In this document: piece by piece, positions 3-40,000 of the stretch
Layout of the letters: each line of letters begins with the position of its first letter
Numbering within the stretch: the stretch's first letter is position 1
Assembly: GCF_027922005.1 (NCBI RefSeq)
Contig: NZ_BSEV01000008.1
Location: 280,704-320,703 of the forward strand
DNA: 40,000 nt
Direction: 5' to 3'
From: Streptosporangium carneum
GTDB taxonomy: Bacteria; Actinomycetota; Actinomycetes; Streptosporangiales; Streptosporangiaceae
Made by a program: the position numbers and the translations under genes
Notes under the pieces: model-generated
What the model saw: the letters and a program-made list of their open reading frames with translations, nothing else
Databases searched by the model: none
What the model was told of the DNA's origin: nothing

Positions 3-1796
3 GAGGAGATCGGCAGGAACCGCAAGCTGGTCCCCATGGGCAGGGCCGCCATCGAGATCGCCCACCACTGGTACTCCGCCCGCGACGACCTGTGGGCCCT
101 GATCTCCGCCTGGGAGGCGGCGGGCAAGGCCGCCAGGACCTTCGCCTACAACGAGAAGATGCAGCTGCTCGAGCGGGTGCTCACGCTGTGGAACAAGGTC
201 CCCGACGCCGCCGCGCGGATCGGCGTCGACCACACCACCGTCCTGGAACAGGCCTCCGAGGCCGCCTACGCCTGCGGTGAGATCGACCGGGGCATGAAGT
301 TCGTCAAGGCCGCGCTGAGCGAGCTGGACGAGAGCGCCGAACCCGAGCGGGTGGCCGAGCTGGTCGTGCGGCTGGCCCAGTTCAAGATGTCCAAGCGCAG
401 GCCAGGGGTGCTCGACGACCTGCGCTACGCCGCGCGGCTGGTCCCCGAGCCCGGGCCCGACCGCGCCCAGGTGCTGTCCAGGCTGGGCTCGTTCCTGATC
501 TTCAGCGGTGAGATAGCCGAAGGGGCCGCGCTCACCGAGGAGGCGCTGCGGATCGCCCGTGAACACAGCGACGAGTGCCTGGAGGCCGACCTCCTGCTCA
601 ACCTCGCCCTGTGCCCCTCGATCGAGGGACGCCTCGAGGAGACGATCGCCGTCAACTCGACCGCCCAGGCGATCGGCGAACGCAAGCAGTCGGGCCGCAT
701 CGTGCTGCGGGCCCTCAGCAACAACGTGGACGCGCTCAACAACATGGGGCGTTCGGCGGAGGCCATCGAGCTGGCGCTCGAAGGCGAACGACTGGCCAAG
801 AAGTACGGTCGCTACCGGATCTCGGGCACGTTCATCGCCAACAACCGGGCGGAGGCGCTGGAGGCGCTCGGGCGCTTCGAGGAGGCGGCCCAGCTGGTCG
901 AACAGGCGCTCACCATGGACCCGATCCCCCGCACCCGCCACCACCTGCGCCGGATCAGGGCGGACGTGGCGGTCGCGCGCGGCGAGGTCGACATCGTCAG
1001 ATCGGTGCTGAACGAGGTGGAGGCCTTCACCGTCCAGGAGGAGTTCACCCAGGAACGGACCGCCAACACCCGGCTCAGACTCGGCCTGCACCTGCTCTGC
1101 GGCGAGCCGCTGGCCGCGCTCGAACTGGCCGAGCGGTTCATCCGGGAGGCACAGCTCACCAGCAAGCCCATGCTCGGCTGGCGGGTGCTCGCCCTGCTGT
1201 CCGCGGTCTGCGAGGCCTCGGAGGCGCTCGCGCCCGAACGCGCGGCGGCGCTGCGCTCCCAGATCGAGGAGACCTGCGCCTCGATGGGCACGCACAGCCC
1301 GGTCGCCGAGGCCTACCGGCTCAGCGTCAACCGCGACCACGACGCCGCCGCCATCGCCTGGGAACGGCTCGACCGTCCCTTCTCCCGCGCCAAGTCGCTG
1401 CTCCACGCGGGGCGAGCGGCGGCGGGCGCGGGAGACCGCGAGGGCGCCGCCGTACGGCTGCGCACGGCCCACCCCATCGCCCTGGCGCTGTCGGCCAAGC
1501 CCCTGGCCACCGAGATCGAGACGCTGGCCCGCAGGATCGGGGTGTCCCTCAGCGGGGAGTCGCCGGCAGCGCTCTCCGCTCCCGCCTCGACGCCGCAGGC
1601 GCCGCTGCTCACCCCCCGTGAGCAGGAGGTCCTGCGACTGGTCGCCCAGGGACGGTCGAACCGCGACATCGCGGCCGAGCTGTTCATCTCGGCCAAGACC
1701 GTGAGCGTGCACGTCTCGAACATCCTGGGCAAGCTCAGCGTCTCGACCAGGGGCGAGGCCGCGGCGGCGGCGCACCGCCTCGCCCTGATCGGCTGA
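3..1796 (+). CDS. LuxR-family transcriptional regulator, 5'-partial (continues upstream of window)
   Basis: The frame is open from the window edge, with no stop before the first ATG at 36. The C-terminus LTPREQEVLRLVAQGRSNRDIAAELFISAKTVSVHVSNILGKL is a canonical LuxR/GerE HTH. The long Leu/Ala/Glu-rich helical region before it resembles the TPR-type sensor part of large LAL/AfsR-like regulators. Confidence 0.85.
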   Translation, partial: EEIGRNRKLVPMGRAAIEIAHHWYSARDDLWALISAWEAAGKAARTFAYNEKMQLLERVLTLWNKVPDAAARIGVDHTTVLEQASEAAYACGEIDRGMKFVKAALSELDESAEPERVAELVVRLAQFKMSKRRPGVLDDLRYAARLVPEPGPDRAQVLSRLGSFLIFSGEIAEGAALTEEALRIAREHSDECLEADLLLNLALCPSIEGRLEETIAVNSTAQAIGERKQSGRIVLRALSNNVDALNNMGRSAEAIELALEGERLAKKYGRYRISGTFIANNRAEALEALGRFEEAAQLVEQALTMDPIPRTRHHLRRIRADVAVARGEVDIVRSVLNEVEAFTVQEEFTQERTANTRLRLGLHLLCGEPLAALELAERFIREAQLTSKPMLGWRVLALLSAVCEASEALAPERAAALRSQIEETCASMGTHSPVAEAYRLSVNRDHDAAAIAWERLDRPFSRAKSLLHAGRAAAGAGDREGAAVRLRTAHPIALALSAKPLATEIETLARRIGVSLSGESPAALSAPASTPQAPLLTPREQEVLRLVAQGRSNRDIAAELFISAKTVSVHVSNILGKLSVSTRGEAAAAAHRLALIG

Positions 1797-1811
1797 CTTC
1801 CTGCATCATGG

Positions 1812-1971
1812 GATCGGTCGGGACACCGGGGCCGGTCGGGTGCTGGGACCGGTCGGGTGCTGGGACCGGTCGGGATGTGAAGACCGGTCAACGCGCGAAG
1901 ACCGGCCAGGGCGTGCGGACCGGTCGTGACACGGAGATCGGCCGGAGTGCGGGGATCGGTCGGAGTGGGAA
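1812..1971. repeat. Degenerate tandem array, 9 units of 17-18 bp, each starting with core G(A/G)(C/T)CGG(T/C)C (palindromic GACCGGTC in 4 units)
   Basis: Unit starts at 1812, 1830, 1847, 1864, 1882, 1900, 1918, 1936 and 1954 were read directly. Units 2 and 3 are near-identical (g[g/a]ccggtcgggtgctgg). The 17-nt units break any single reading frame, so the array is non-coding. It lies between the LuxR stop (1796) and the XRE-cupin start. Confidence 0.9.
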
Positions 1972-1985
1972 GAGGGGAAACGCGC

Positions 1986-2648
1986 ATGCGAAGCGAGAAC
2001 GGTGTCGCCTTCGGCATGACCCCGGTCTCGTCATCCGAGTCTCAGGGACCGCGCGGAACTCCCTCTGACGCTCCCGTGGTGCGCGACGCCCCCTCCGAGG
2101 CGGCCGGGATTCGTGACGCGATCGCCGCGAACCTGCGCCGTGCCCGCCTGGCGCGCGGTCTCAGCGTCCGTGAGCTGGCCGAGCTGACCGGGGTGAGCAA
2201 GGCGCTGATCTCCCAGGTGGAGCGCGGCGTCGCCAACCCCACGGTCGAGGTGCTGGCTCGGCTGTCGACCGCCCTGGAGCTGACCTTCGGCGAGCTGACC
2301 CGCATCCACCTGGTGGGCCCCGAGGTGATCCGCCGCAGCGAGAGCGTTCCGCTGCTGGTCGGCGACAGCGCGATCCGCACCCTGTTCGCCGCGCCTGACC
2401 GGCGTCGCTTCGAGCTGACGGAGGGCGACATCCCGGCCGGGACCCGCAGCGCCAAGAGCTCACACGGCCGGGGCTCGGTCGAGCACGCCTACGTGGTCTC
2501 CGGTGAGGTGACGGTGGAGACCGGCGAGTGGTCGGTGACGTTGGCGGCGGGCGACGCGCTGCGCTTCGCCTCCGAGTCCGACCACGTCTACGCCACCGGT
2601 GCGGTTCCGTGCCGGGTGCTGACTCTGATCTCCTTCTCCGAGGACTGA
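1986..2648 (+). CDS. XRE-family HTH regulator with C-terminal cupin domain
   Basis: LRRARLARGLSVRELAELTGVSKALISQVERGVANPTVEVLARLSTALELTFGEL is a typical HTH_3 (XRE) domain. The C-terminal part (GSVEHAYVVSGEVTVETGEWSVTLAAGDALRF) is cupin_2-like. The track ORF starts at 1926. ATG 1986 is preferred because of an upstream purine-rich stretch (gaagaggggaaa); ATG 2016 is also possible. Confidence 0.85.
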   Translation: MRSENGVAFGMTPVSSSESQGPRGTPSDAPVVRDAPSEAAGIRDAIAANLRRARLARGLSVRELAELTGVSKALISQVERGVANPTVEVLARLSTALELTFGELTRIHLVGPEVIRRSESVPLLVGDSAIRTLFAAPDRRRFELTEGDIPAGTRSAKSSHGRGSVEHAYVVSGEVTVETGEWSVTLAAGDALRFASESDHVYATGAVPCRVLTLISFSED

Positions 2649-4698: not shown

Positions 4699-5528
4699 CA
4701 GTCGTCGAGTGGGGTGACCGGGACGGTCCGCTTGTGCCGGGTCGCGAGGTACACCGACTCCACCTTCGCCGCCACGTCCGGCGCGACGTCGACGCCTTCC
4801 AGATAGTCGTCGATCTGGGTGTACTTCAGGCCGAGTGCCACCTCGTCGGGCAGCGCGGGCCGGTCGTCCTCGAGGTCGGCGGTCGGCACCTTCTCCCAGG
4901 CGCTCGGCGGCGCGCCCAGCTCCTGCAGCAGGGCGGCGCCCTGGCGCTTGGTCAGTCCGGTCAGCGGGGTGACGTCGACGCCGCCGTCGCCGTACTTGGT
5001 GAAGAAGCCGGTCACCGCCTCGGCCGCGTGGTCGGTGCCCACGACGAGCAGGCCCAGCTGTCCGGCGATCGAGTACTGGATCACCATGCGTTCGCGGGCC
5101 TTGATGTTCCCGCGCACGAAGTCCCGCAGCTTGGGCTCATCGCCCAGCAGCTCCCGCAGGCCGAACGCCGCCTCGGCGGCGACGGCGTCCGCGCTCGGCT
5201 TGACGTTCACCGTGATCGACCGGTCGGGCCGGATGAACTCCAGCGCGATCTGCGCGTCGTGCTCGTCGGCCTGCACGCCGTAGGGCAGCCGCACCGCGAC
5301 GAAGGTGGCCTCATGCCCCTCGGCACGCAGCTCCTCGCCGGCGAGCTGGCACAACCTGCCGGCCAGCGTGCTGTCCTGGCCGCCGCTGATCCCGAGCACG
5401 TAGCCCCTGGCCGGGGTCGACCGCAGGTAGTCCTTGAGGAAGTCGACCCGTTGCCGGATCTCGATTTTGGGGACAATGGTCGCCTTGACGCCGAGCTCGG
5501 CGAGAATCTGCTTCCGTAGGTTCGCCAT
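4689..5528 (-). CDS. nadE: Ammonia-dependent NAD+ synthetase
   Basis: 279 aa. It has the PP-loop [10 protein letters not shown]. Length and overall sequence ([14 protein letters not shown]..., [20 protein letters not shown]) are typical of NadE. Confidence 0.93.
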
Positions 5529-17167: not shown

Positions 17168-17255
17168 CCCGGGTCGGCTCTCCAGCAGGCCCGACTCGGC
17201 TCTCCGACGGACCCGAGTCGCCTCTCCGGCAGACCCGGGTCAGCTCTCCGGCAGG
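17168..17255. repeat. 22-bp x4 tandem repeat spanning the GntR stop codon and the convergent intergenic region
   Basis: The four units are cccgggtcggctctccagcagg, cccgactcggctctccgacgga, cccgagtcgcctctccggcaga and cccgggtcagctctccggcagg, at 17168, 17190, 17212 and 17234. The last unit contains the GntR TGA (17240-17242, minus strand). Confidence 0.9.
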
Positions 17256-25863: not shown

Positions 25864-25908
25864 CCGCCCTCCTGTGGGCCGGTACGACCTTTTGTGAAAG
25901 GACCTCAC

Positions 25909-27342
25909 GTGAGCATCACCGAGACGCCGACCGCCGCCCAGCTGCGCTCCGTCGTCGACTGTCCGGTCATCCTGCCCGGCGACAAGGGATACGACGTGGC
26001 CCGGCACGTGTGGAACGCCGACATCGACCGGCGTCCGGCGGCGATCGTGCGCTGCCGCGACGCCCAGGACGTGTCGCGGGCGCTGACCTGGTGCCTGGAC
26101 CACGACCTGGAGATCACCGTGCGCGGCGGCGGCCACAACCTCGCCGGGACCTCGGTCGACGACGGCGCGGTGCTGCTGGACACCGGCGGCATGCGGGACG
26201 TCGTGTTCGACCGCGAGGCCGGGACTGTGCGGGTCGGCGCGGGCTGCAGGCTGGGCAACCTGGACCGGGCCTGTGCCGACGAGGGCGTCGTCGTGCCCGC
26301 GGGCACGGTCTCGCACACCGGTGTCGCCGGGCTCACCCTGGGCGGCGGCAACGGCTACCTGTCCCGCATGTACGGCCTGACCGTGGACCACCTGCTCTCG
26401 GTCGAGCTGGTGCTGGCCGACGGACGGATCATCACCGCCTCGGCCGACGAGCACCCCGACCTCTTCTGGGCGCTGCGCGGCGCGGGCCACAACTTCGGCG
26501 TCGCGATCTCCTTCACCTTCAGGTACCTGCCGTTCACCCGGCTCGCCAACGTCCGTCAGGCGTTCTTCGCCACCGACGACCGGCGCGAGGTGCTGCGCTT
26601 CTTCCGCGACTGGGCCTACGACGCGCCCGACAACGTGGTGACCTACGCCCGCACCGTCGAGGTGCCCGAATACTGGACCCTGGTGCCCACCGCGCACCGC
26701 GGCACCCAGATCGTCAGCGTCGCCACCGTCCAGTGGGGCGACGACGAGCCCGAGGTCACCCAGCCGATGTTCGCCCAGGCCACCCCGGTCTGGGAGACCT
26801 CCTACACCGTGCCGCACATGGAGCTCCAGCGGGCCTGCGACGACGACTTCCGCTACGGCGTCCGCCGCTACTGGCGCAACGGCAACCTGCGGGACTTCCC
26901 CGACGAGGCCATCGACACCGTGCTCCACTGGTCCGACCGCTACCCCGGCAGGCCGCTGCAGGCGGGCTCCACCATCGCCCCGCACTTCGCGTGCCCGTTC
27001 CAGCTCTTCCCGCGCGGCGGCCAGGCGGCCCGCGTCGACCCGTGGGACACCGCGGTCGGCGACCGCGTCGAGGCCCGCTGGATGTCCAGCGCCGGAGCCG
27101 AGTGGGAGTTCCCCTCCGAGGCCCCCGAGCTGATCGAATGGACCCGCGCCTTCGACGCCGACATGGACAGGTTCAAGGCCGGCTCCTACGTCAACTTCAC
27201 CACCGAGATCGTCAACGCGATGGAGGCGCGCGACATCTACGGCGAGAAGTACGACCGGCTCGTCAAGGTGAAGCGGGTCTACGACCCGGCGAACGTCTTC
27301 AGGCGCGGGCTGGTGGACCTGTCGGGTGGGACCGATGCCTGA
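25909..27342 (+). CDS. FAD-linked oxidase (VAO/PCMH fold, FAD_binding_4 plus BBE-like C-terminus)
   Basis: ITVRGGGHNLAG (candidate His for covalent FAD), GGGNGYLSRMYGLTVDHLLSVELVLADGRIITAS, and C-terminal YDPANVFRRG (BBE-like). GTG 25909 is preferred over 25894 because GAAAGGA lies 6 nt upstream. Confidence 0.9.
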   Translation: MSITETPTAAQLRSVVDCPVILPGDKGYDVARHVWNADIDRRPAAIVRCRDAQDVSRALTWCLDHDLEITVRGGGHNLAGTSVDDGAVLLDTGGMRDVVFDREAGTVRVGAGCRLGNLDRACADEGVVVPAGTVSHTGVAGLTLGGGNGYLSRMYGLTVDHLLSVELVLADGRIITASADEHPDLFWALRGAGHNFGVAISFTFRYLPFTRLANVRQAFFATDDRREVLRFFRDWAYDAPDNVVTYARTVEVPEYWTLVPTAHRGTQIVSVATVQWGDDEPEVTQPMFAQATPVWETSYTVPHMELQRACDDDFRYGVRRYWRNGNLRDFPDEAIDTVLHWSDRYPGRPLQAGSTIAPHFACPFQLFPRGGQAARVDPWDTAVGDRVEARWMSSAGAEWEFPSEAPELIEWTRAFDADMDRFKAGSYVNFTTEIVNAMEARDIYGEKYDRLVKVKRVYDPANVFRRGLVDLSGGTDA

Positions 27343-28516
27343 GGCTTTCACACCCGGGGCTTTCACACCCGGGGCTTTCACACCCGGGGCTTTGACGCGT
27401 GAGGCTTCGGCGCGTGAGGCGACTTCGGAGCATGAGACGGCCGCGCGTGAGACGGCTCCGGCGCGTGAGGTGCGGGTCGGCACCGACAGCAGCAAGTTCC
27501 CCGGCGCTCCGGAGAACGGCGCGGAGTGGACGCTGCGCGAGGTTCACCGGCTCGGCCTTGAGGGCGTGTTCTTCCGTTCGGTCCTGGAGCTGAGCCCCAC
27601 CCTGGACCCCGGCGAGCTACGGGCCGTGGTCCAGCTCGCCGAGGACCTCGGCCTGTACGTCGAGGTCGGCACCGCCAAGGTCAACCCGTTCGCCGCGCCC
27701 GAGGCCCCCGAGGTGCGGGAACTCGGCGGCGGCGACTACCTTCGCGGCCTGGAGAGGCTCGTCGTCGCCTGCGCGGAGGCGGGGGTGCGCGAGCTGTGGA
27801 GCGCCACCGCCAACTACAAGTTCGGCATCCCCGGGCGACTCGGCTGCGACCGGTTCCGCACCGACGTCACCTGGCCGGAGCAACTGGAGGCGACCGGCAA
27901 GGTGCTGGCCGGACTGGGGCCGCTGCTGCGCGACCTGGGCTGTCATCTCAACCTCGAGACCCACGAGGAGATCACCACCTTCGAGCTGGTGCGCCTGGTC
28001 GAGGAGGCGGGGCCCGACGCGTTCGGGATCACCTTCGACACCGCCAACGTGCTGCTGCGCTGCGAGGACCCGGTGGCGGCGGCTCATCGCGTCGCCCCCT
28101 ACGTACGGCAGAGCCACGTGCGCGACGCGGCGCTGTTCCTGACCGAGGACGGCGTCCGGCGCTTCCTCGCGCCGTGCGGCCGGGGCGTCATCGACTGGCC
28201 CGCGCTGCTGCGGCCGCTGCTGGCGCACGCGCCCCGGCTGACGTTGTCCATCGAGGGCGTCATGGGGCGGCGGTTCCCGCTGCCGGTGTCCATCTACGAC
28301 CCCGAGTGGCACGGGGGGCACCCGGACCTGACCACGGTGGAGCTGGCCGAGATCGTCCGGCTGGCCGACGGCTACCGGCGCAGGGCCGAACGGGGTGAGG
28401 TTCCCGACAGGGAGACGCTCTCCCAGCCGGTTCCGGTGTCCGAACGGCTGGCTTTCGTCACCGAGAGCGCCGCCCACCTGCGCGCCGTACTGGTCGACCT
28501 GGCCCGTCCCGCCTGA
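27335..28516 (+). CDS. Sugar-phosphate isomerase/epimerase-type TIM-barrel protein, paralog 2, with possible repeat-encoded N-terminal extension
   Basis: The core aligns end to end with paralog 1 (NLETHEEITTFELVRLVEEAGPDAFGITFDTANV). Homology starts near VRVGTDSS (GTG 27470). ATG 27335 overlaps the oxidase stop (ATGCCTGA), and repeat periods divisible by 3 favour the long form. The start remains uncertain. Confidence 0.8.
   Translation: MPEAFTPGAFTPGAFTPGALTREASAREATSEHETAARETAPAREVRVGTDSSKFPGAPENGAEWTLREVHRLGLEGVFFRSVLELSPTLDPGELRAVVQLAEDLGLYVEVGTAKVNPFAAPEAPEVRELGGGDYLRGLERLVVACAEAGVRELWSATANYKFGIPGRLGCDRFRTDVTWPEQLEATGKVLAGLGPLLRDLGCHLNLETHEEITTFELVRLVEEAGPDAFGITFDTANVLLRCEDPVAAAHRVAPYVRQSHVRDAALFLTEDGVRRFLAPCGRGVIDWPALLRPLLAHAPRLTLSIEGVMGRRFPLPVSIYDPEWHGGHPDLTTVELAEIVRLADGYRRRAERGEVPDRETLSQPVPVSERLAFVTESAAHLRAVLVDLARPA
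27343..27469 (+). repeat. 15-bp tandem repeat (ggctttcacacccgg x3 perfect plus 1 degenerate), then five G(C/A)(G/T)TGAG-type motifs spaced 15/18 nt
   Basis: Units at 27343, 27358, 27373 and 27388. GCGTGAG/GCATGAG occurs at 27397, 27412, 27430, 27445 and 27463. All spacings are multiples of 3. The array would encode EAFTP-GAFTP-GAFTP-GALTREASAREATSEHETAARETAPARE if translated. Confidence 0.9.
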
Positions 28517-34259: not shown

Positions 34260-36191
34260 CTAGCCGAGCCAGCCCGCGGAGCCGTCGGGGACGCTGGCCA
34301 GCAACGCCCGGGTGTAGGGGTGGGCGGGGGCGTCAAGGACCTGGTCCGCGGAGCCCGTCTCCACGCACCGGCCCGCCTCCAGCACGTAGAGCCGGTCGGC
34401 GATCTGGCGGACCACGGCCAGGTCGTGGGTGATGAACAGCATCGCCATGGACAGCCGTTCGCGCAGCTCGGCCAGCAGGCCCAGGATCTGCGCCTGGACC
34501 GAGACGTCGAGGGCGGACACCGGTTCGTCGCAGATCAGCAGCCGGGGCTCGCCCGCGACGGCACGGGCGATCGCGACCCGCTGTCGTTCCCCGCCCGACA
34601 GCCCGGCGGGACGCATCCCGGCCATGTCGCGGCCCAGACCGACCGACTCCAGCAGCCGGGCGACGTCTCCCGAAGCCGCGGGACGGCCGTCCGCGCGCAG
34701 GGCCTCGGCGAGGGCCGCCCCGATCGTGCGGGCCGGGTTGAGCGTCGAGTAGGGGTCCTGGAAGATCATCTGTGCGGTGCGGCGCGCCTGGCGCACCGCC
34801 GTACGGCTCAGCCTGCCGTAGTCGGAACAGTCGACGCCGTCGAGCAGGATCGTGCCCGCGTCCGGGCGTTCCAGTCCGGCGACGCAGCGGGCGAGCGTGG
34901 TCTTGCCCGACCCGGACTCACCGACCACACCGACGACCTCGCCGGAGGCGATGGACAGACTCACCCCGGCCAGCGCGGGACGGCCGGCCCCGGCGAACGT
35001 CCTTCGCAGGTCACGAACGTCGAGCACCGCGTCGGCCAGGCCTCTGAACGGAAGCGTGACACCCGGCGCGGGCGCGGGCTGGGCGGGCAGCTCCGTGGCG
35101 CGCAGGCAGGCGGACTCACGGCCCGGCCGTACGGCCTTCGGCACCGGCCCCACGGCCAGGCACTCGGCCACGGCGAGGGAGCACCGCTCCGCGAAGGCGC
35201 ACCGGTCGGCCACGGCGTCATGGGCGGGCACGGAGCCGGGAACCGCGGGGATGACGGCCAGACGCCGGTCCGCGGGCGGCTCGGCGGCCAGCAGGGCCCG
35301 GGTGTAGGGGTGGAGCTGCTCGTTCCGTACGGCCGCCGCCCCGCCGGTCTCCATGATCCGGCCCGCGTACATCACCACGACCCGGTCGCAGGTGGAGAAC
35401 GCCAGGCGCAGGTCATGGGTGATGAGCACGAACGCCATGTCCCGCTCACGCTGGATGCGCCTGACGAGGGCGAGCACCTCGCGCTGCGTGGTGGCGTCGA
35501 GCGCGGTCGTCGGCTCGTCGGCGACGAGCACCCGCGGCCCGCCCGCGAGCGCGGCGGCCAGCCCGACGCGCTGCCGCATGCCGCCGGACAGCTGGAAGGG
35601 GTGACGTCCCGCGACGTCCTCCGGCAGGCCGACCTCGGCCAGCAGCCGAGGCACCTCGACCTTCGGGTCCGCCCCCTTCGGCAGCCCGTCCGCGATCTGC
35701 CGCCCCACCCTGCGCAACGGGTTGAGCAGGGTGAACGGGTCCTGCATGAGGAGGGAGACCACGCCGCCGCGCTGCCGGGCGCGGGTGCGCGGGTCGTCGT
35801 CGACGCGCACGCCGTCGACGTCCACCCGCCCGGTGGCCTCAAGCCCCCGGGGCAGCAGACCAAGCATCGCCCTGACCGTGAGCGACTTGCCCGAGCCCGA
35901 CTCGCCGACGATCGCGACGGACTCGCCGGGCGCGACCTCGAAGGAGACCCCGGACAGCAGGGTCCGTCCCGTGGCGGGCTGGCGCACGGCGAGCCCCTCG
36001 ACCCGGACGCCCCCGGAGAGCCCGGCGTTCCGGACGTCTCCTGAGAGACCAGCGCCCCGGACGTCTCCTGAAAGCCCGGCGTCCCGGATGCCCCCGGAGA
36101 GCCCGGCGGCCTCGGGACGTCCCGCTCCGCCCCCTCCCGTCCCTGGCCCGCCCGCGTTCCCCGCCCCCGGCCCGTCCGCTCTCGATGCCAT
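34260..36191 (-). CDS. Fused double-NBD ABC transporter ATP-binding protein (DppD-DppF fusion type)
   Basis: Two full NBDs: GESGSGKS / LSGGMRQR / [11 protein letters not shown] and GESGSGKTT / LSGGERQR / LICDEPVSALD. The N-terminus carries a Gly-rich segment and four 9-aa repeats. The ATG follows the permease stop by 1 nt (TGAgATG). Confidence 0.9.
   Translation of the reverse strand: MASRADGPGAGNAGGPGTGGGGAGRPEAAGLSGGIRDAGLSGDVRGAGLSGDVRNAGLSGGVRVEGLAVRQPATGRTLLSGVSFEVAPGESVAIVGESGSGKSLTVRAMLGLLPRGLEATGRVDVDGVRVDDDPRTRARQRGGVVSLLMQDPFTLLNPLRRVGRQIADGLPKGADPKVEVPRLLAEVGLPEDVAGRHPFQLSGGMRQRVGLAAALAGGPRVLVADEPTTALDATTQREVLALVRRIQRERDMAFVLITHDLRLAFSTCDRVVVMYAGRIMETGGAAAVRNEQLHPYTRALLAAEPPADRRLAVIPAVPGSVPAHDAVADRCAFAERCSLAVAECLAVGPVPKAVRPGRESACLRATELPAQPAPAPGVTLPFRGLADAVLDVRDLRRTFAGAGRPALAGVSLSIASGEVVGVVGESGSGKTTLARCVAGLERPDAGTILLDGVDCSDYGRLSRTAVRQARRTAQMIFQDPYSTLNPARTIGAALAEALRADGRPAASGDVARLLESVGLGRDMAGMRPAGLSGGERQRVAIARAVAGEPRLLICDEPVSALDVSVQAQILGLLAELRERLSMAMLFITHDLAVVRQIADRLYVLEAGRCVETGSADQVLDAPAHPYTRALLASVPDGSAGWLG
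36000..36107 (-). repeat. 27-bp x4 in-frame tandem repeat at the 5' end of the ATPase gene (AGLSGGIRD/AGLSGDVRG/AGLSGDVRN/AGLSGGVRV)
   Basis: Units at 36000-36026, 36027-36053, 36054-36080 and 36081-36107 were read directly. The promoter-distal unit merges into the genuine NBD N-terminus (VRVEGLAVRQP). Confidence 0.9.
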
Positions 36192-36192
36192 C

Positions 36193-37041
36193 TCAGCGTG
36201 CCCTTCCGCGCCGGTCGACGCGTTCGTACAGCCAGTCGCCCACGATGTTGAGCGCGGCGGCCGTGGCGATGATGGCCAGGCCCGGAGCGATCACCGTCCA
36301 GGGGTTGGTGAGGAACTGGGTGCGGTTGTCCGACAGCGTGCGCCCCCAGTCGGGAGAGCCCGCGGGCACCCCCAGGCCGAGGAAGGACAGCGACGCCAGC
36401 GAGACCAGCGCGTAGGCGAAGTTGAGGAAGACGTTGGCCAGCGCGACCGGGGCGATGTTCGGCCAGACGTGCCTGGTCATGATCCGCCATGCGGAGAGGT
36501 TCTTCAGCTGCGCGGCCTCCACGTAGGGGCGGTGCCGCTGTTCGAGCACGGCTCCGCGCACCACCCGCGTGTCGGTCGGCGCGAACAGCACGACCAGCAC
36601 GGCGATCGCCAGGCCGTACCCGCCGCCCAGGACGCCTGCGACGACGATCGCCACCAGGAGCGCGGGCAGGGAGAACACCAGGTCCGCCCAGCGCATGGCC
36701 AGCGCGTCGACCCAGCCGCCGAGGTATCCGGCGGGCAGGCCCACGAGGTTGCCGATGAGCATCGACCCGGCGGCGACGCACAGCGCTCCCGGCACCGCCG
36801 TACGGGCTCCGGCGACCAGGAGCTCCAGCACGTCGCGGCCGAGATCGTCGGTGCCGAGCGGGTGACCGGGGCCTGGGCCCGTGATGCCCAGCATCAGGTC
36901 CTGCGCGGTCGCGTCCGGCACGATCCAGGGGGCGAAGACGGTGGCCACCGCCACCGCGACGAGGACGGCCAGCGCGACGGCCACGCTGATCGGGGGACGA
37001 CGCCTCGTCTCCCGGGCAAGCCCGGCCCGCGGGTGCTTCAT
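36193..37041 (-). CDS. ABC transporter permease (DppC/OppC-like)
   Basis: FAPWIVPD, HPLGTDDLGRDVLELLVAGAR, and a typical BPD_transp_1 core. Confidence 0.9.
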   Translation of the reverse strand: MKHPRAGLARETRRRPPISVAVALAVLVAVAVATVFAPWIVPDATAQDLMLGITGPGPGHPLGTDDLGRDVLELLVAGARTAVPGALCVAAGSMLIGNLVGLPAGYLGGWVDALAMRWADLVFSLPALLVAIVVAGVLGGGYGLAIAVLVVLFAPTDTRVVRGAVLEQRHRPYVEAAQLKNLSAWRIMTRHVWPNIAPVALANVFLNFAYALVSLASLSFLGLGVPAGSPDWGRTLSDNRTQFLTNPWTVIAPGLAIIATAAALNIVGDWLYERVDRRGRAR

Positions 37042-37079
37042 GGCGTCCTCCCGCCGGACTCGGTCCGTGAGCGTGTCAT
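37038..37079 (-). other. Candidate relay mini-ORF 2 (MTRSRTESGGRTP*)
   Basis: The ATG overlaps the mini-ORF 1 stop and its TGA overlaps the DppC-like ATG at 37041. It has its own GGGAGGA SD. Confidence 0.35.
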
Positions 37080-37138
37080 GACGTCCTCCCGCCGGGCCTG
37101 GTCCGTGGATGCGTCATGACGTCCTCCCGCCGAGCCTG
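37039..37138 (-). repeat. 38-bp tandem repeat, about 3 copies, each carrying SD (GGGAGGA) plus ATGA
   Basis: On the minus strand, CGGCGGGAGGACG(T/C)CATGA occurs three times with ATGs at 37117, 37079 and 37041, an exact 38-nt period. Flanking unit sequence is more diverged. Confidence 0.92.
37076..37117 (-). other. Candidate relay mini-ORF 1 (MTHPRTRPGGRTS*)
   Basis: The ATG overlaps the DppB-like stop (ATGA) and its TGA overlaps the next ATG. It has its own GGGAGGA SD. Confidence 0.35.
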
Positions 37139-38076
37139 ACCCGGGGGTCCACCACCGAGTAGCCGACGTCGACCAGGAGGTTGACGACGGCGATGAGCAG
37201 GGTGAGCAGCAGCGCGAGCGCCTGGACCGCCGGGACGTCCTTGAAGGTGACCGAGTCGACGAGCAGGGAGCCGAGGCCCGGCAGCGCGAAGGTCACCTCG
37301 ACCAGCACGGTCCCGGCCAGCATGCCGGTCACGATGAGCCCGGCCGCGGTGAGGATCGGGACGAGCGAGTTGCGCAGCGCGTAGCCGAGGACGGCGGCGG
37401 AGCTCAGGCCGCGTGCTCTGGCGAACACCACGTAGTCCTGGTCCAGCTCGCGGATCAGCGCGGCCCTGCTGAAGCGGACGAGCATGCCGACGGCTCCGAC
37501 GGCCAGCGCGGCGGCGGGCAGCGTCAGGTGCCAGATCTGGTCGGCGAGGCCCTCACCGGTGCCGTAGACGGGGAACCAGCCGAGCCAGGCGGCGAAGACC
37601 ACGAGCAGCAGCAGTCCGACGGCGAACGGCGGGGCGCTCAGCCCGACCACTCCGGCGGTGACCACGAGCCTGTCGGTCGCCCTGCCCCGGCGCAGGGCTC
37701 CCGCCACGCCCAGCGGGATGCCGGCGAGCAGCGACAACAGCGTGCCGTACCCGGTGAGCGCCAGGGTGAGCGGGAGCCGGTCGCCGATCATGTCGGCGAC
37801 CGGTGAGCCGGTCCTGATGGAGACGCCGAGGTCCCCGCGGAGGACGCCGCCGAGCCAGCTCAGGTACTGCACCGGCAGCGGGTCGTCGAGGTGGTAGCGG
37901 GCCTGGATCGCGGCGATCGTCTCCGGGGTCGCCGGACGGGTGCCGAGCAGGGTCTGCTGCACCGACCCCGGGGCGAGGTAGAGCAGGCCGAACACGCCGA
38001 TCGACAGCAGCACGACGACGACGGCGGTGCCGGCGAACCTGCGCAGCAGAAACGCGCCCCAGCTCCGCCACGCCAT
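37114..38076 (-). CDS. ABC transporter permease (DppB/OppB-like)
   Basis: WGAFLLRRFAGTAVVVVLLSIGVFGLLYLAPGS is a typical N-terminus. ATG 38076 was chosen because it overlaps the upstream S9 peptidase stop by 1 nt (TGATG). The track start 38103 would overlap by 28 nt. Confidence 0.9.
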   Translation of the reverse strand: MAWRSWGAFLLRRFAGTAVVVVLLSIGVFGLLYLAPGSVQQTLLGTRPATPETIAAIQARYHLDDPLPVQYLSWLGGVLRGDLGVSIRTGSPVADMIGDRLPLTLALTGYGTLLSLLAGIPLGVAGALRRGRATDRLVVTAGVVGLSAPPFAVGLLLLVVFAAWLGWFPVYGTGEGLADQIWHLTLPAAALAVGAVGMLVRFSRAALIRELDQDYVVFARARGLSSAAVLGYALRNSLVPILTAAGLIVTGMLAGTVLVEVTFALPGLGSLLVDSVTFKDVPAVQALALLLTLLIAVVNLLVDVGYSVVDPRVRLGGRTS

Positions 38077-39998
38077 CACAGCACCCCGTTCCCCGCCAGC
38101 CACGCGACCACCCGTTCCGCCGCGTCACGGCGGTGCTCCGGCTCGGTCAGCTCGTGGCCCTCCCGAGGGTAGACGACGAGTTGAGTCCTCACGCCAGCCG
38201 CTGACCAGGCACGATAGAGCTGTTCCGCCTGACCGACGGGGGTCGTGCGGTCCTCCGCGCCGTGCAGGATCAGCGTCGGGGTGGTGACGGCGGCGGCGTG
38301 GCACACCGGGGAGCGGGCGGCGAGGAACTCCCTGCCCTCGGTCGTGGCGACGTCGGCTCCCCGGTGGTAGAGCGGGTCGTAGCCTCCGGCGAGGTTGCTG
38401 GCGGTGGCGAAGCTGAGCCAGTCGGCGACGCCGGACATCACCACCGCGGCCGCGAACCGGTCGGTGCGGGTCACCGCCCACGCGCTGAGGTAGCCGCCGT
38501 AGCTCAGCCCGAGCACGGCCATGCGCCCGGGGTCGGCGATCCCGCGCTCGACGAGGCGGTCGACTCCGGCGAGGACGTCGCCGAGATCCTCCTCGCCGAC
38601 GCGGCCGATGACGCGACGCGCGTAGTCCTGCCCGCGCCCGCTGCTCCCCCTGGGGTTGGGCAGCAGCACGGCGGCGCCCGCGTGCACCAGCGGCAGCGCG
38701 AGCTGGTCGGACTCGGCGGGCGCGAAGGTGCTCGACCACAGCCAGGTGGGGCCGCCGTGCGCGATGACGACGAGCGGCCTGGCCCGCCCCCCGTCGCCGT
38801 CCGGGACGGGAGCGTCGTCCGGAATGAGAGCGCCGTCCATGGCTGGAACGGCGTCCAGAGCGGGAGCGGCGTCCAGAGCGGGAGCGGCGTCCAGAGCGGG
38901 AGCGCCGTCCAAGGCTGGAGCATCGTCCAGGGCCGGAGCGGCGTCCAAGGCTGGAGCATCGTCCAGGGCCGGAGCGGCGTCGGGGGCGTCGCGGTCCATG
39001 GGGGTCAGCAGAAGGCCCTGGACGGTGAGCCCGTCAGGTCCGGTCCAGCTCACCTCCTCCTGGCGTACGGCCAGCCGGGCGAGATCCTCGTTGAGGCCGG
39101 TGACCTGACGCCACTCACCCTCGCCCACCCCGGCCACCGCGATCTCCGGAGGCCGTTCCGCCGTCTCCCAGACGGCCGCGGCGAGCGTGCCCGCGCGGTC
39201 GACGGACAGGGACGGCTGCCCGTCCCGCCCGCCCAGGGTGCCCCAGGCGGTCCACCGGGTCAGCAGGCGACCGTCGGCGGTCAGCGTGCCGCCGTGCGTG
39301 CCGGTGCCGGACCAGCCGGTGAACCACAGGGTGTGCTCGTCCAGCCAGCCCAGGTCGGTGACGTCGTCCACGGCGGTCAGCCGCGTCACCTCGCCGCTGT
39401 CCAGGTCGACGTGGACGATCCGCCCGGAGACGATGGACAGCCCCTCGACGACGACGACGGCGCGTCCCCCGGGGGCCAGCCGGGGGCGGTTGAGCTGCCA
39501 GGAGGTGCTCATGAGGGTCCTGGTCCCGCCGGTCTCGCGGTCGATCAGGTCGAGACGGGGCCGGTAGTACCCAGCGGGCGTCTCGTCCGCCGAGGTCACG
39601 GCCAGCGCGACGCCGTCACGCCAGTCGGCGTCCCACACGGTCAGGCCCGTCAGGGGGATGGGCCGCGGGGCCGCGTCGCCGACCTCGGCCCAGGCGAGCC
39701 GCCGCAGCCGCCCTCCGGGGGTCCTGACGAAGGGGTCGGAGGGATCGGCGACCCGCAGGCCGAGGTGGCTGCCGTCGCGTTCGCTGCCGGGGTCGGCGAG
39801 CCGTACGAGCACGGTGCCGTCGTTCCCGGCGACCAGGTCCTCGATCTCCCCGTCCACCCTGACCCGCCAGGTGAGGGTGAGGTCGTCCGCCGAGCGGACC
39901 TCGACGTGGTCGAGGTCCTGCCCCTCACCGGAGGCGAACAGCAGCCGCCCGTCGGGCAGCCACCGGGTGAGCGCGTGCCAGCGCCCGGACGCCTCAGC
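38076..39998 (-). CDS. S9-family serine peptidase (prolyl oligopeptidase / acylaminoacyl-peptidase type), 5'-partial
   Basis: C-terminal catalytic domain with GLSYGGYLSAW (Ser), HGAEDRTTP (Asp) and PREGHEL (His), and an N-terminal beta-propeller. The frame stays open to the window edge (..WLPDGRLLFASGEGQDL.. upstream of the track start 39857), so the gene continues beyond 40000. Confidence 0.88.
   Translation of the reverse strand, partial: AEASGRWHALTRWLPDGRLLFASGEGQDLDHVEVRSADDLTLTWRVRVDGEIEDLVAGNDGTVLVRLADPGSERDGSHLGLRVADPSDPFVRTPGGRLRRLAWAEVGDAAPRPIPLTGLTVWDADWRDGVALAVTSADETPAGYYRPRLDLIDRETGGTRTLMSTSWQLNRPRLAPGGRAVVVVEGLSIVSGRIVHVDLDSGEVTRLTAVDDVTDLGWLDEHTLWFTGWSGTGTHGGTLTADGRLLTRWTAWGTLGGRDGQPSLSVDRAGTLAAAVWETAERPPEIAVAGVGEGEWRQVTGLNEDLARLAVRQEEVSWTGPDGLTVQGLLLTPMDRDAPDAAPALDDAPALDAAPALDDAPALDGAPALDAAPALDAAPALDAVPAMDGALIPDDAPVPDGDGGRARPLVVIAHGGPTWLWSSTFAPAESDQLALPLVHAGAAVLLPNPRGSSGRGQDYARRVIGRVGEEDLGDVLAGVDRLVERGIADPGRMAVLGLSYGGYLSAWAVTRTDRFAAAVVMSGVADWLSFATASNLAGGYDPLYHRGADVATTEGREFLAARSPVCHAAAVTTPTLILHGAEDRTTPVGQAEQLYRAWSAAGVRTQLVVYPREGHELTEPEHRRDAAERVVAWLAGNGVL
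38832..38993 (-). repeat. 18-bp x ~9 in-frame tandem repeat encoding (A/V)PALD(A/D/G) hexapeptides inside the S9 peptidase
   Basis: Units start at 38832, 38850, 38868, 38886, 38904, 38922, 38940, 38958 and 38976 (the last is degenerate). Three consecutive units are identical (ggcgtccagagcgggagc). There is also a 36-bp higher-order repeat x2. Confidence 0.92.
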
Positions 39999-40000
39999 CG

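Follow-up and report, generated by a model that had tools for sequence, protein, structure and literature searches.

A candidate ribosome relay formed by a triplicated stop-start junction between two permease genes of Streptosporangium carneum

Introduction

In Streptosporangium carneum, two neighbouring genes for ATP-binding cassette (ABC) transporter permeases, one OppB/DppB-like (here B) and one OppC/DppC-like (here C), are linked by a junction at which stop and start codon overlap, and this junction is present three times in series. The locus lies in a 40-kb stretch of the genome, referred to as the window, and the array is read on the minus strand. It raises the question of whether the two short open reading frames (ORFs) between the repeated junctions, termed mini-ORFs, hand ribosomes from B to C, or whether they are an incidental product of tandem duplication. 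With a probability of about 0.6 we favour the relay, a mechanistically plausible reading that is weakly supported by comparison with orthologous loci.

Results

Architecture of the 38-nt array

The features that make up the junction, all on the minus strand, are as follows (SD, Shine-Dalgarno motif GGGAGG; TRF, Tandem Repeats Finder).

37114..38076, minus: B, OppB/DppB-like ABC permease, 320 aa (ORF, gene call, Pfam)
37019..37138, minus: 38-nt tandem array at the B/C junction, 3.2 copies (TRF: 77% matches, score 147)
37114..37132, minus: block copy 1, CGGCGGGAGGACGTCATGA, in native junction context; SD 37128-37123, ATG 37117-37115, TGA of B 37116-37114
37076..37117, minus: mini-ORF 1, MTHPRTRPGGRTS, 13 codons plus TGA, stop overlapping the second ATG (chain script, sequence)
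37076..37094, minus: block copy 2, CGGCGGGAGGACGTCATGA, identical to copy 1 at 19/19 positions; SD 37090-37085, ATG 37079-37077, TGA 37078-37076
37038..37079, minus: mini-ORF 2, MTRSRTESGGRTP, 13 codons plus TGA, stop overlapping the start of C (chain script)
37038..37056, minus: block copy 3, CGGCGGGAGGACGCCATGA; SD 37052-37047, ATG 37041-37039, TGA 37040-37038; working ribosome binding site of C (the gene caller starts C here)
37006..37017, minus: degenerate fourth block, GCCCGGGAGACG, within codons 9-12 of C (repeat search)
36193..37041, minus: C, OppC/DppC-like ABC permease, 282 aa, beginning MKHPRAGLARETRRRPPISV (Pfam, gene call)

The 19-nt block CGGCGGGAGGACG(T/C)CATGA thus occurs three times, each SD standing 5 nt ahead of its own ATG. 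The start-to-start spacing of the copies in the repeat search is 38 and 38 nt, and TRF run on the oriented junction recovers the array again. The block CGGCGGGAGGACGYCATGA is matched three times in the window, compared with a mean of 0.01 in dinucleotide shuffles, none of which (0/100) reaches three matches. A unit is made up of the final ~15 nt of B (GGC GGG AGG ACG TCA, holding the SD), the ATGA and about six C-like codons.

A script that proceeds from each stop codon to the start codon overlapping it yields an uninterrupted chain from B through MTHPRTRPGGRTS and MTRSRTESGGRTP to MKHPRAGLARETRRRPPISV, the beginning of C. Since 38 equals 3n+2, each added copy became a 13-codon ORF whose TGA overlaps the next ATG, so that co-directional RTGA overlaps (R, A or G), as in gene pairs overlapping by four nucleotides (-4), are found at 37117-37114, 37079-37076 and 37041-37038. 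On the reverse complement of 36900..37260 we recovered everything that a preliminary description of this DNA had reported on the point: the three blocks, their 38-nt period, the phasing arithmetic and both mini-ORF sequences. Presumably, the mini-ORFs are translated in vivo.

As a further consequence of the spacing (2 x 38 - 1 = 75), B and C now share a reading frame (37041..37116, minus), and nothing but the TGA of B (context TGA-C) and a run of 24 sense codons (RIHGPGPAGGRHDTLTDRVRREDA) parts them. Read-through of this TGA would yield a fused B-C permease. The shared frame is probably a by-product of the arithmetic.

The single overlap is conserved among orthologues

A scan of species-representative genomes provided 25 close orthologous loci (75-97% identity), from Streptosporangium, Nonomuraea, Acrocarpospora, Actinocorallia and Micromonospora, together with more distant ones; look-ups of near-identical proteins added loci of the S. 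canum/roseum type and further Streptosporangium loci. Loci are numbered L001, L002 and so on. A single RTGA junction is found in 28/33 loci. These include the sister species L001, in which the core of B and C is 93.2% identical to that of the window at nucleotide level and 83.7% identical at third codon positions, as well as every orthologue from Nonomuraea, Acrocarpospora, Actinocorallia and Micromonospora; among close orthologues (>=80% identical) outside Streptosporangium the count is 17/17. The block of copy 1 is one base apart from the single junction block of L001, CGGCGGGAGGACCTCATGA (18/19, positions -15 to +4). Down to 46% protein identity, the stop codon of B is overlapped by ATG or GTG in 32 of the 33 loci, and coupling therefore looks like a conserved trait of the B/C pair. 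The single -4 overlap is accordingly the ancestral, strongly conserved state, and the triplication is confined to S. carneum.

Four species of the S. amethystogenes/vulgare clade carry other inserts between the stop of B and the start of C. In L002 and L009 the insert measures 32 nt and contains one 11-codon ORF, in L008 it measures 47+32 nt with ORFs of 16 and 11 codons, and in L006 it measures 98 nt with a single 33-codon ORF. In all four, the ORF or ORFs opening at the stop of B end on the GTGA that starts C. An orthologue with variable copies and broken ATG/TGA phasing was not found among the 33 loci. In the same four loci (~4811-4818), a TTG overlaps the stop of C and opens a 2-codon ORF (TTGAGATGA) that ends on the ATG of the ATPase gene, an arrangement that may be due to chance.

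Duplications that stay in frame lengthen the N-terminus of C instead. The clear cases are a 21-nt repeat of GTCGTGACGCGTCC in S. canum/roseum and a 12-nt repeat of CTCATGAGGCGG in Acrocarpospora. Moreover, a 285-aa variant of C possesses two MT(R/S)(S/P) heads, and C proteins that share more than 90% identity are between 270 and 295 aa long. TRF applied to the orthologous junctions confirmed only the window array and the 12-nt duplication in L015; in-frame copies of 36 nt (L001) and 39 nt (L004/L091) recognised by eye were not confirmed by TRF, and the 32-, 47- and 66-nt inserts may be junction copies, likewise not confirmed by TRF. Within the first ~100 nt of C, L091 and L004 contain a 10-nt x2.9 repeat, CCGCGGGAGG, which amounts to three SD-like GGGAGG motifs in a row; in L091, C has 295 aa and B 359 aa. 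A degenerate block, CAGGAGCATCGTG, similar to the fourth block of S. carneum, is located in L001 at equal distance from its start (by-eye comparison). From its sequence, the fourth block GCCCGGGAGACG looks like an older in-frame remnant of a similar duplication.

The unit derives from the ends of B and C

The array can be regarded securely as a species-specific local tandem duplication of the native B/C junction. The tails of the mini-ORFs, GGRTS and GGRTP, replicate the C-terminus of B (...VRLGGRTS), and their heads, MTHPR and MTRSR, replicate the N-terminus of C in close relatives, where C begins with MTRPPVSV, MTRPSRV-VTRPPVSV, MTRSPAG-MTSPRADA-... or MRRSRSDA.... In particular, the head of mini-ORF 2, MTRS.. 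(CGCTCACGG), resembles the N-terminus of C in L001 (MRRSRS) and in others (MTRS/MTRP).

The three copies differ at 12 columns, which are unevenly distributed: the block varies at 1/19 columns and the other half of the unit at 11/19 (Fisher p=0.001), and 10 of these 11 are transitions. The earlier observation that SD, ATG and TGA are intact while the rest of the unit has diverged is thereby borne out. Copy 1 is constrained as the tail of B and copy 3 as the ribosome binding site of C, and hence only copy 2, whose block has no classical job, is informative on selection. Compared with copy 1, it is identical across the block (19/19) and differs at 7/19 positions in the other half (p=0.008); these differences are largely ancestral states common to L001. 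Shared derived states suggest the grouping ((copy 1, copy 3), copy 2), in which copy 2 is nearest to the N-terminus of the sister species. Simple serial slippage does not fit this history.

Outside the array, no copy of the 19-nt block is found in the window with up to two mismatches allowed, and the exact block is absent from 210 fetched loci of other origin. An inserted mobile element was therefore rejected as the source, no other copy having been found and the unit being made from the ends of the flanking genes.

RNA elements and comparable arrays elsewhere

The best Rfam match (E=0.13), an archaeal snoRNA, does not rise above noise. The insert, although rich in C, displays no special RNA structure (fold z = -0.64), and neither an intrinsic terminator nor a promoter-like site was detected in 36700..37500. 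On account of the fold value and the missing terminator and Rfam match, a leader-peptide or attenuator upstream ORF (uORF) was rejected.

A search for triplicated junctions with the pattern GGAGGN5RTGA x3 and gaps of 15-45 nt gave at least 120 metagenome stretches and 43 viral stretches. Period classes of (0,0) account for 166/237 among the metagenome matches listed and for 88/90 viral matches, and the matches listed are mostly in-frame coding repeats or satellites. A 3n+2 array between two long ORFs was not present among the metagenome matches listed or the viral matches, a count that does not gauge prevalence firmly. The nearest among the matches listed are L101, with 41-nt units following an ORF of 306-389 codons and no long ORF downstream, and, next, L224, with 47-nt units in front of a 138-codon ORF. 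When ~763 kb was scanned naively for chains of RTGA overlaps that link ORFs of 200 or more codons, dozens of hits resulted, mostly spurious ORFs in alternative frames; chains lacking an SD are thus no evidence by themselves.

Duplication proneness and reading frame

As the orthologous loci show, the junction and the head of C form a duplication hot spot in Streptosporangium. The duplication events seen there are 3n or 3n+2 only, the clear in-frame ones in the start region being the 3n repeats of S. roseum/canum (21 nt) and Acrocarpospora (12 nt); a 3n+1 event was not seen among the duplications of the junction and C head in orthologous loci. Such an event would throw reinitiating ribosomes out of frame across the start of C. 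It may be that phase is under selection, and the other inserts fit selection on phase while showing no adaptive device.

Many minisatellite arrays occur in the window. Within verified genes their periods are multiples of three (15, 18, 27 and 18 nt); the one located between two convergent genes repeats every 22 nt, and the one on the -4 junction every 38 nt. Besides the latter, the following were noted.

35987..36108, minus: 27-nt x4.5 repeat in the N-terminal extension of the fused ATPase, nonamers of the AGLSG(G/D)(I/V)R type
38798..38981, minus: 18-nt x10.2 repeat, (APALDA)n, in the S9 peptidase, directly ahead of the matched catalytic domain
27338..27469, plus: second junction with tandem arrays, from an FAD/BBE oxidase gene to a TIM-barrel gene
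17168..17254: 22-nt x4 tandem repeat (CCCGAGTCGGCTCTCCGGCAGA) between a dienelactone-hydrolase gene and a convergent GntR/FCD regulator gene
1809..1889: 17-nt x3.8 tandem repeat (TGGGACCGGTCGGGTGC), apparently intergenic, between the ORFs 36..1796 and 1926..2648

The 27-nt repeat looks like a copy of the beginning of the ABC domain (..GGVRVEGLAV), and in Streptosporangium orthologues the ATPase is between 588 and 667 aa long; the length of the peptidase varies from 637 to 736 aa among orthologues. At the second junction, the oxidase gene (25894..27342) overlaps the ATG at 27335, the putative start of the xylose-isomerase-like TIM-barrel gene (ATGCCTGA). This junction is directly followed by a perfect 15-nt x3.4 array (GGCTTTCACACCCGG) and by an 18-nt x3.9 array that repeats TGAGGCTT of the junction. 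Both are in the downstream frame, as (AFTPG)3 and (..ARE..)4, and add five more TGAs in the frame of the oxidase gene. The 22-nt array extends into the 3' end of the regulator gene. Altogether, the genus makes tandem duplications freely, especially beside gene starts, and constraints of the reading frame appear to decide which of them survive.

Genomic context

In the visible part of the operon (34260..40000, minus) the S9 peptidase gene is the first, followed by B, C and a gene for a fused double ATPase, an order that is identical across all orthologous loci.

38076..40000, minus: S9-family peptidase, 736 aa in the source record, directly upstream of B and cut by the window end (Pfam Peptidase_S9 1e-44, gene calls)
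34260..36191, minus: fused double ATPase (643 aa) belonging to this transporter, next gene of the operon after C (Pfam ABC_tran x2 and oligo_HPY x2)

The ORF of B spans 37114..38103 (minus), and the start at 38076 chosen by the gene caller gives the 320-aa protein, listed at NCBI as ABC transporter permease [Streptosporangium carneum]. It matches BPD_transp_1 (2.9e-33) and BPD_transp_1_N (6.4e-15); C matches BPD_transp_1 (4.7e-33). Two BPD_transp_1 permeases, one of them with BPD_transp_1_N, combined with an oligo_HPY ATPase characterise an importer of the Opp/Dpp (peptide/nickel) type, and homologues are labelled 'peptide/nickel transport system permease protein' at JGI. The DppB/DppC-like naming of the preliminary description was accordingly right. 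A gene for a substrate-binding protein was not seen beside the operon within the window, and a convergent MFS transporter gene lies downstream of it. Proteins identical to B and C are recorded for two S. carneum assemblies only.

Discussion

How the relay would work

In E. coli, termination-reinitiation needs only the last 15 nt of the upstream gene and is nearly abolished by an untranslated spacer of ~20 nt (PMC10666635), and strict coupling was observed in 13/14 tested overlapping pairs (PMC6728339). Ribosomes that end B would be expected to reinitiate at the ATG at 37117 as they would have done at the ancestral junction, since all but one base of the stretch from -15 to +4 is shared with L001. 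They would then read 13 codons, stop at the second ATGA and restart, stop once more at the third ATGA and so reach the start of C after two hops, while each GGGAGG could also recruit ribosomes de novo. Owing to the chained mini-ORFs, the 76-nt insertion would keep the ancestral coupling and leave no untranslated gap. With hops below 100% efficiency, C would become somewhat less dependent on B and more on its own SD. Reinitiation, rather than de novo SD-driven initiation, would probably deliver ribosomes to C. We regard the array as a tolerated duplication that survives through its coupling-compatible phase, and not as an evolved regulator.

Weighing the relay against a neutral scar

The most serious alternative, although rather unlikely, is a neutral slippage scar: B keeps its first stop, C its own SD and ATG, C is initiated de novo, the mini-ORFs are incidental or not translated at all, and the 3n+2 period arose by chance, at odds of one in three. 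The following observations weigh against the relay, speak for such a scar, or both. The array is species-specific, the sister species being without it, and is known from two assemblies that are probably of the same type strain. It resides in a minisatellite-rich genome, with three other arrays beside gene starts in the window. A strong SD precedes every copy, and C, with one of its own (GGGAGG, 5-nt spacing, ATG), could come wholly from de novo initiation at 37041, in which case the mini-ORFs could be irrelevant to C synthesis. The statistics on phase are weak: with some four independent inserts, p is roughly 0.05, and adding the in-frame events gives (2/3)^9 = ~0.03, several of these having been identified by eye without TRF confirmation. 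RTGA chains without an SD often arise by chance in GC-rich DNA, and the chains of L002, L006, L008 and L009 are therefore less compelling than that of S. carneum. Conservation of the block is partly due to ordinary constraint on copies 1 and 3. Furthermore, the spacer between SD and start (5-6 nt) is identical in the copies, yet freely variable between species. Homogenisation or a young age would account for this at least as readily as selection, and the block pattern could stem from short-patch homogenisation, or from staggered ages of the copies, just as well as from selection.

However, a neutral scar leaves it hard to explain how ribosomes would ignore 37117, given that the context of the first ATG is nearly that of the L001 junction. 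The -4 overlap in 32/33 loci implies that coupling matters, four of four other inserted junctions keep the chain, and an untranslated gap of 76 nt is expected to abolish coupling (PMC10666635). The claim that the array is a preserved relay and not a slippage scar can thus be upheld in part: phase-breaking orthologues were not found and the other inserts preserve the chain, but the array is a duplication product and restricted to one species.

The remaining alternatives

The preliminary description suggested that the array could tune the permease stoichiometry, an idea that gains no support here. Such an adaptive tuner, in which the number of relay steps sets the C:B ratio or partly frees C from B and is kept by selection, appears improbable. 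Copy number and insert length do vary between species, each hop adds a loading SD and can lose ribosomes, so that the ratio could depend on the number of steps, and differential translation in operons has been proposed for variable-number tandem repeats of the mycobacterial interspersed repetitive unit (MIRU) type (PMC2734929, citing Supply 1997). However, most orthologues, the closest included, manage with one junction, and in-frame variants that lengthen the N-terminus of C are at least as common in the genus, which suggests mutation pressure, not design. The two permeases of this transporter class form a 1:1 heterodimer, and there is no obvious need to shift their ratio.

Similarly low is the probability that the phase was selected against polarity, continuous translation shielding the mRNA from Rho-dependent termination or decay, a notion compatible with the relay. 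For M. tuberculosis, a role of 1- and 4-nt overlaps in suppressing Rho-dependent termination has been put forward (bioRxiv 10.1101/2022.06.01.494293), and the C-rich, unstructured insert in a region free of intrinsic terminators and promoter-like sites would agree with it. However, an insert of 76 nt offers little room for Rho to load, and locus-specific support was not found. A mobile MIRU-like element or an assembly artefact is very improbable: MIRU insertions do occur at start codons and give rise to tandem arrays whose ORFs are coupled (PMC12548453), and tandem repeats can be mis-assembled, but the unit consists of B's own tail and C's own head with no further copy in the window or the 210 other loci, the 12 variable columns allow unambiguous read placement, and two assemblies contain identical B and C proteins.

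What the locus may mean

In sister species, versions of the junction with a single copy, with one mini-ORF and with two mini-ORFs all exist. If the relay works, these provide a natural series of one, two and three steps for the efficiency of reinitiation after very short ORFs, and for the dependence of a downstream subunit on its upstream partner. A broader reading is doubtful: junction duplication would be a recurrent, frame-filtered route by which actinobacterial operons gain self-derived MIRU-like relays, in which only 3n+2 units (as a mini-ORF relay) or 3n units (as an N-terminal extension) persist and copy number measurably sets the dependence of the downstream subunit on translation of the upstream one. 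If it were true, the locus would represent a young, traceable stage in the origin of MIRU-type elements. Frame compatibility (3n+2 at the -4 junction, 3n inside genes) appears to decide the survival of minisatellites. For annotation, an operon 'intergenic gap' of 70-100 nt may be fully translated. In S. carneum, protection from Rho by tight stop/start overlap, as proposed for M. tuberculosis (bioRxiv 10.1101/2022.06.01.494293), would be a second, non-exclusive reason to keep the gap translated.

Comparison with known systems

Each junction of S. carneum resembles an ordinary -4 pair in having its SD in the 3' end of the upstream frame and a stop overlapping the start, and B and C are two subunits of one complex, a class enriched for overlaps (PMC10666635, PMC6728339). 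In contrast to such pairs, the junction is iterated threefold, and the 'upstream gene' is in two cases a 13-codon ORF with no likely protein function. With uORFs the mini-ORFs would share the property of a short ORF solely handing the ribosome to the next start (PMC12548453), and uORFs of M. tuberculosis overlap the annotated ORF or another uORF downstream (NUGA; bioRxiv 10.1101/2022.06.01.494293). However, mycobacterial uORFs are situated in 5' leaders and often tied to conditional termination, whereas the mini-ORFs are repeats of an intercistronic junction, for which no terminator or attenuator structure was found.

The closest parallel is provided by MIRUs, tandem repeats of 40-100 bp in operon intergenic regions with ORFs whose ends overlap the adjacent genes (PMC3184786). 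The preliminary description knew of no described example of a tandemly iterated coupling junction; MIRU arrays of M. tuberculosis, which carry ORFs coupled at -4 (PMC12548453, PMC3184786), are such examples. The senX3-regX3 spacer contains three 77-bp units in H37Rv, and in CDC1551 two 77-bp units with a further one of 53 bp (PMC4213456); both lengths are 3n+2, as is 38. Both types of array are actinobacterial, tandem and intercistronic within an operon, both have a co-oriented unit ORF in -4 overlap with the stop and start of its neighbours (here the two 13-codon ORFs), and in both the copy number differs between lineages. The proposed roles also coincide, namely tolerance of an insertion without breaking operon translation, or differential translation: MIRU ORFs are likewise thought to keep coupling in mycobacterial operons (PMC12548453), and differential translation within operons was one function originally proposed for them (PMC2734929, citing Supply 1997).

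The differences concern origin and size. MIRUs are dispersed over ~41 loci, thought to be mobile and described as restricted to mycobacteria (PMC3184786, PMC2734929), whereas the unit of S. carneum is a local copy of its own junction without another in the window or the 210 loci. It is also shorter, its 38 bp falling marginally below the published range, and carries a full canonical SD. As the unit derives from the tail of B and the head of C, sequence kinship with MIRUs is very unlikely. The array would therefore work like a MIRU array but is not filed as a MIRU, being self-derived, without a second copy found and from a different genus. Nothing suggests a new mechanism of gene expression, and no new principle is needed for a relay that has its known counterpart in MIRUs. 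In conclusion, the locus is best described as a candidate self-derived, MIRU-like coupling relay, and it illustrates how a coupled intercistronic repeat of this kind can arise from local sequence outside the mycobacteria.

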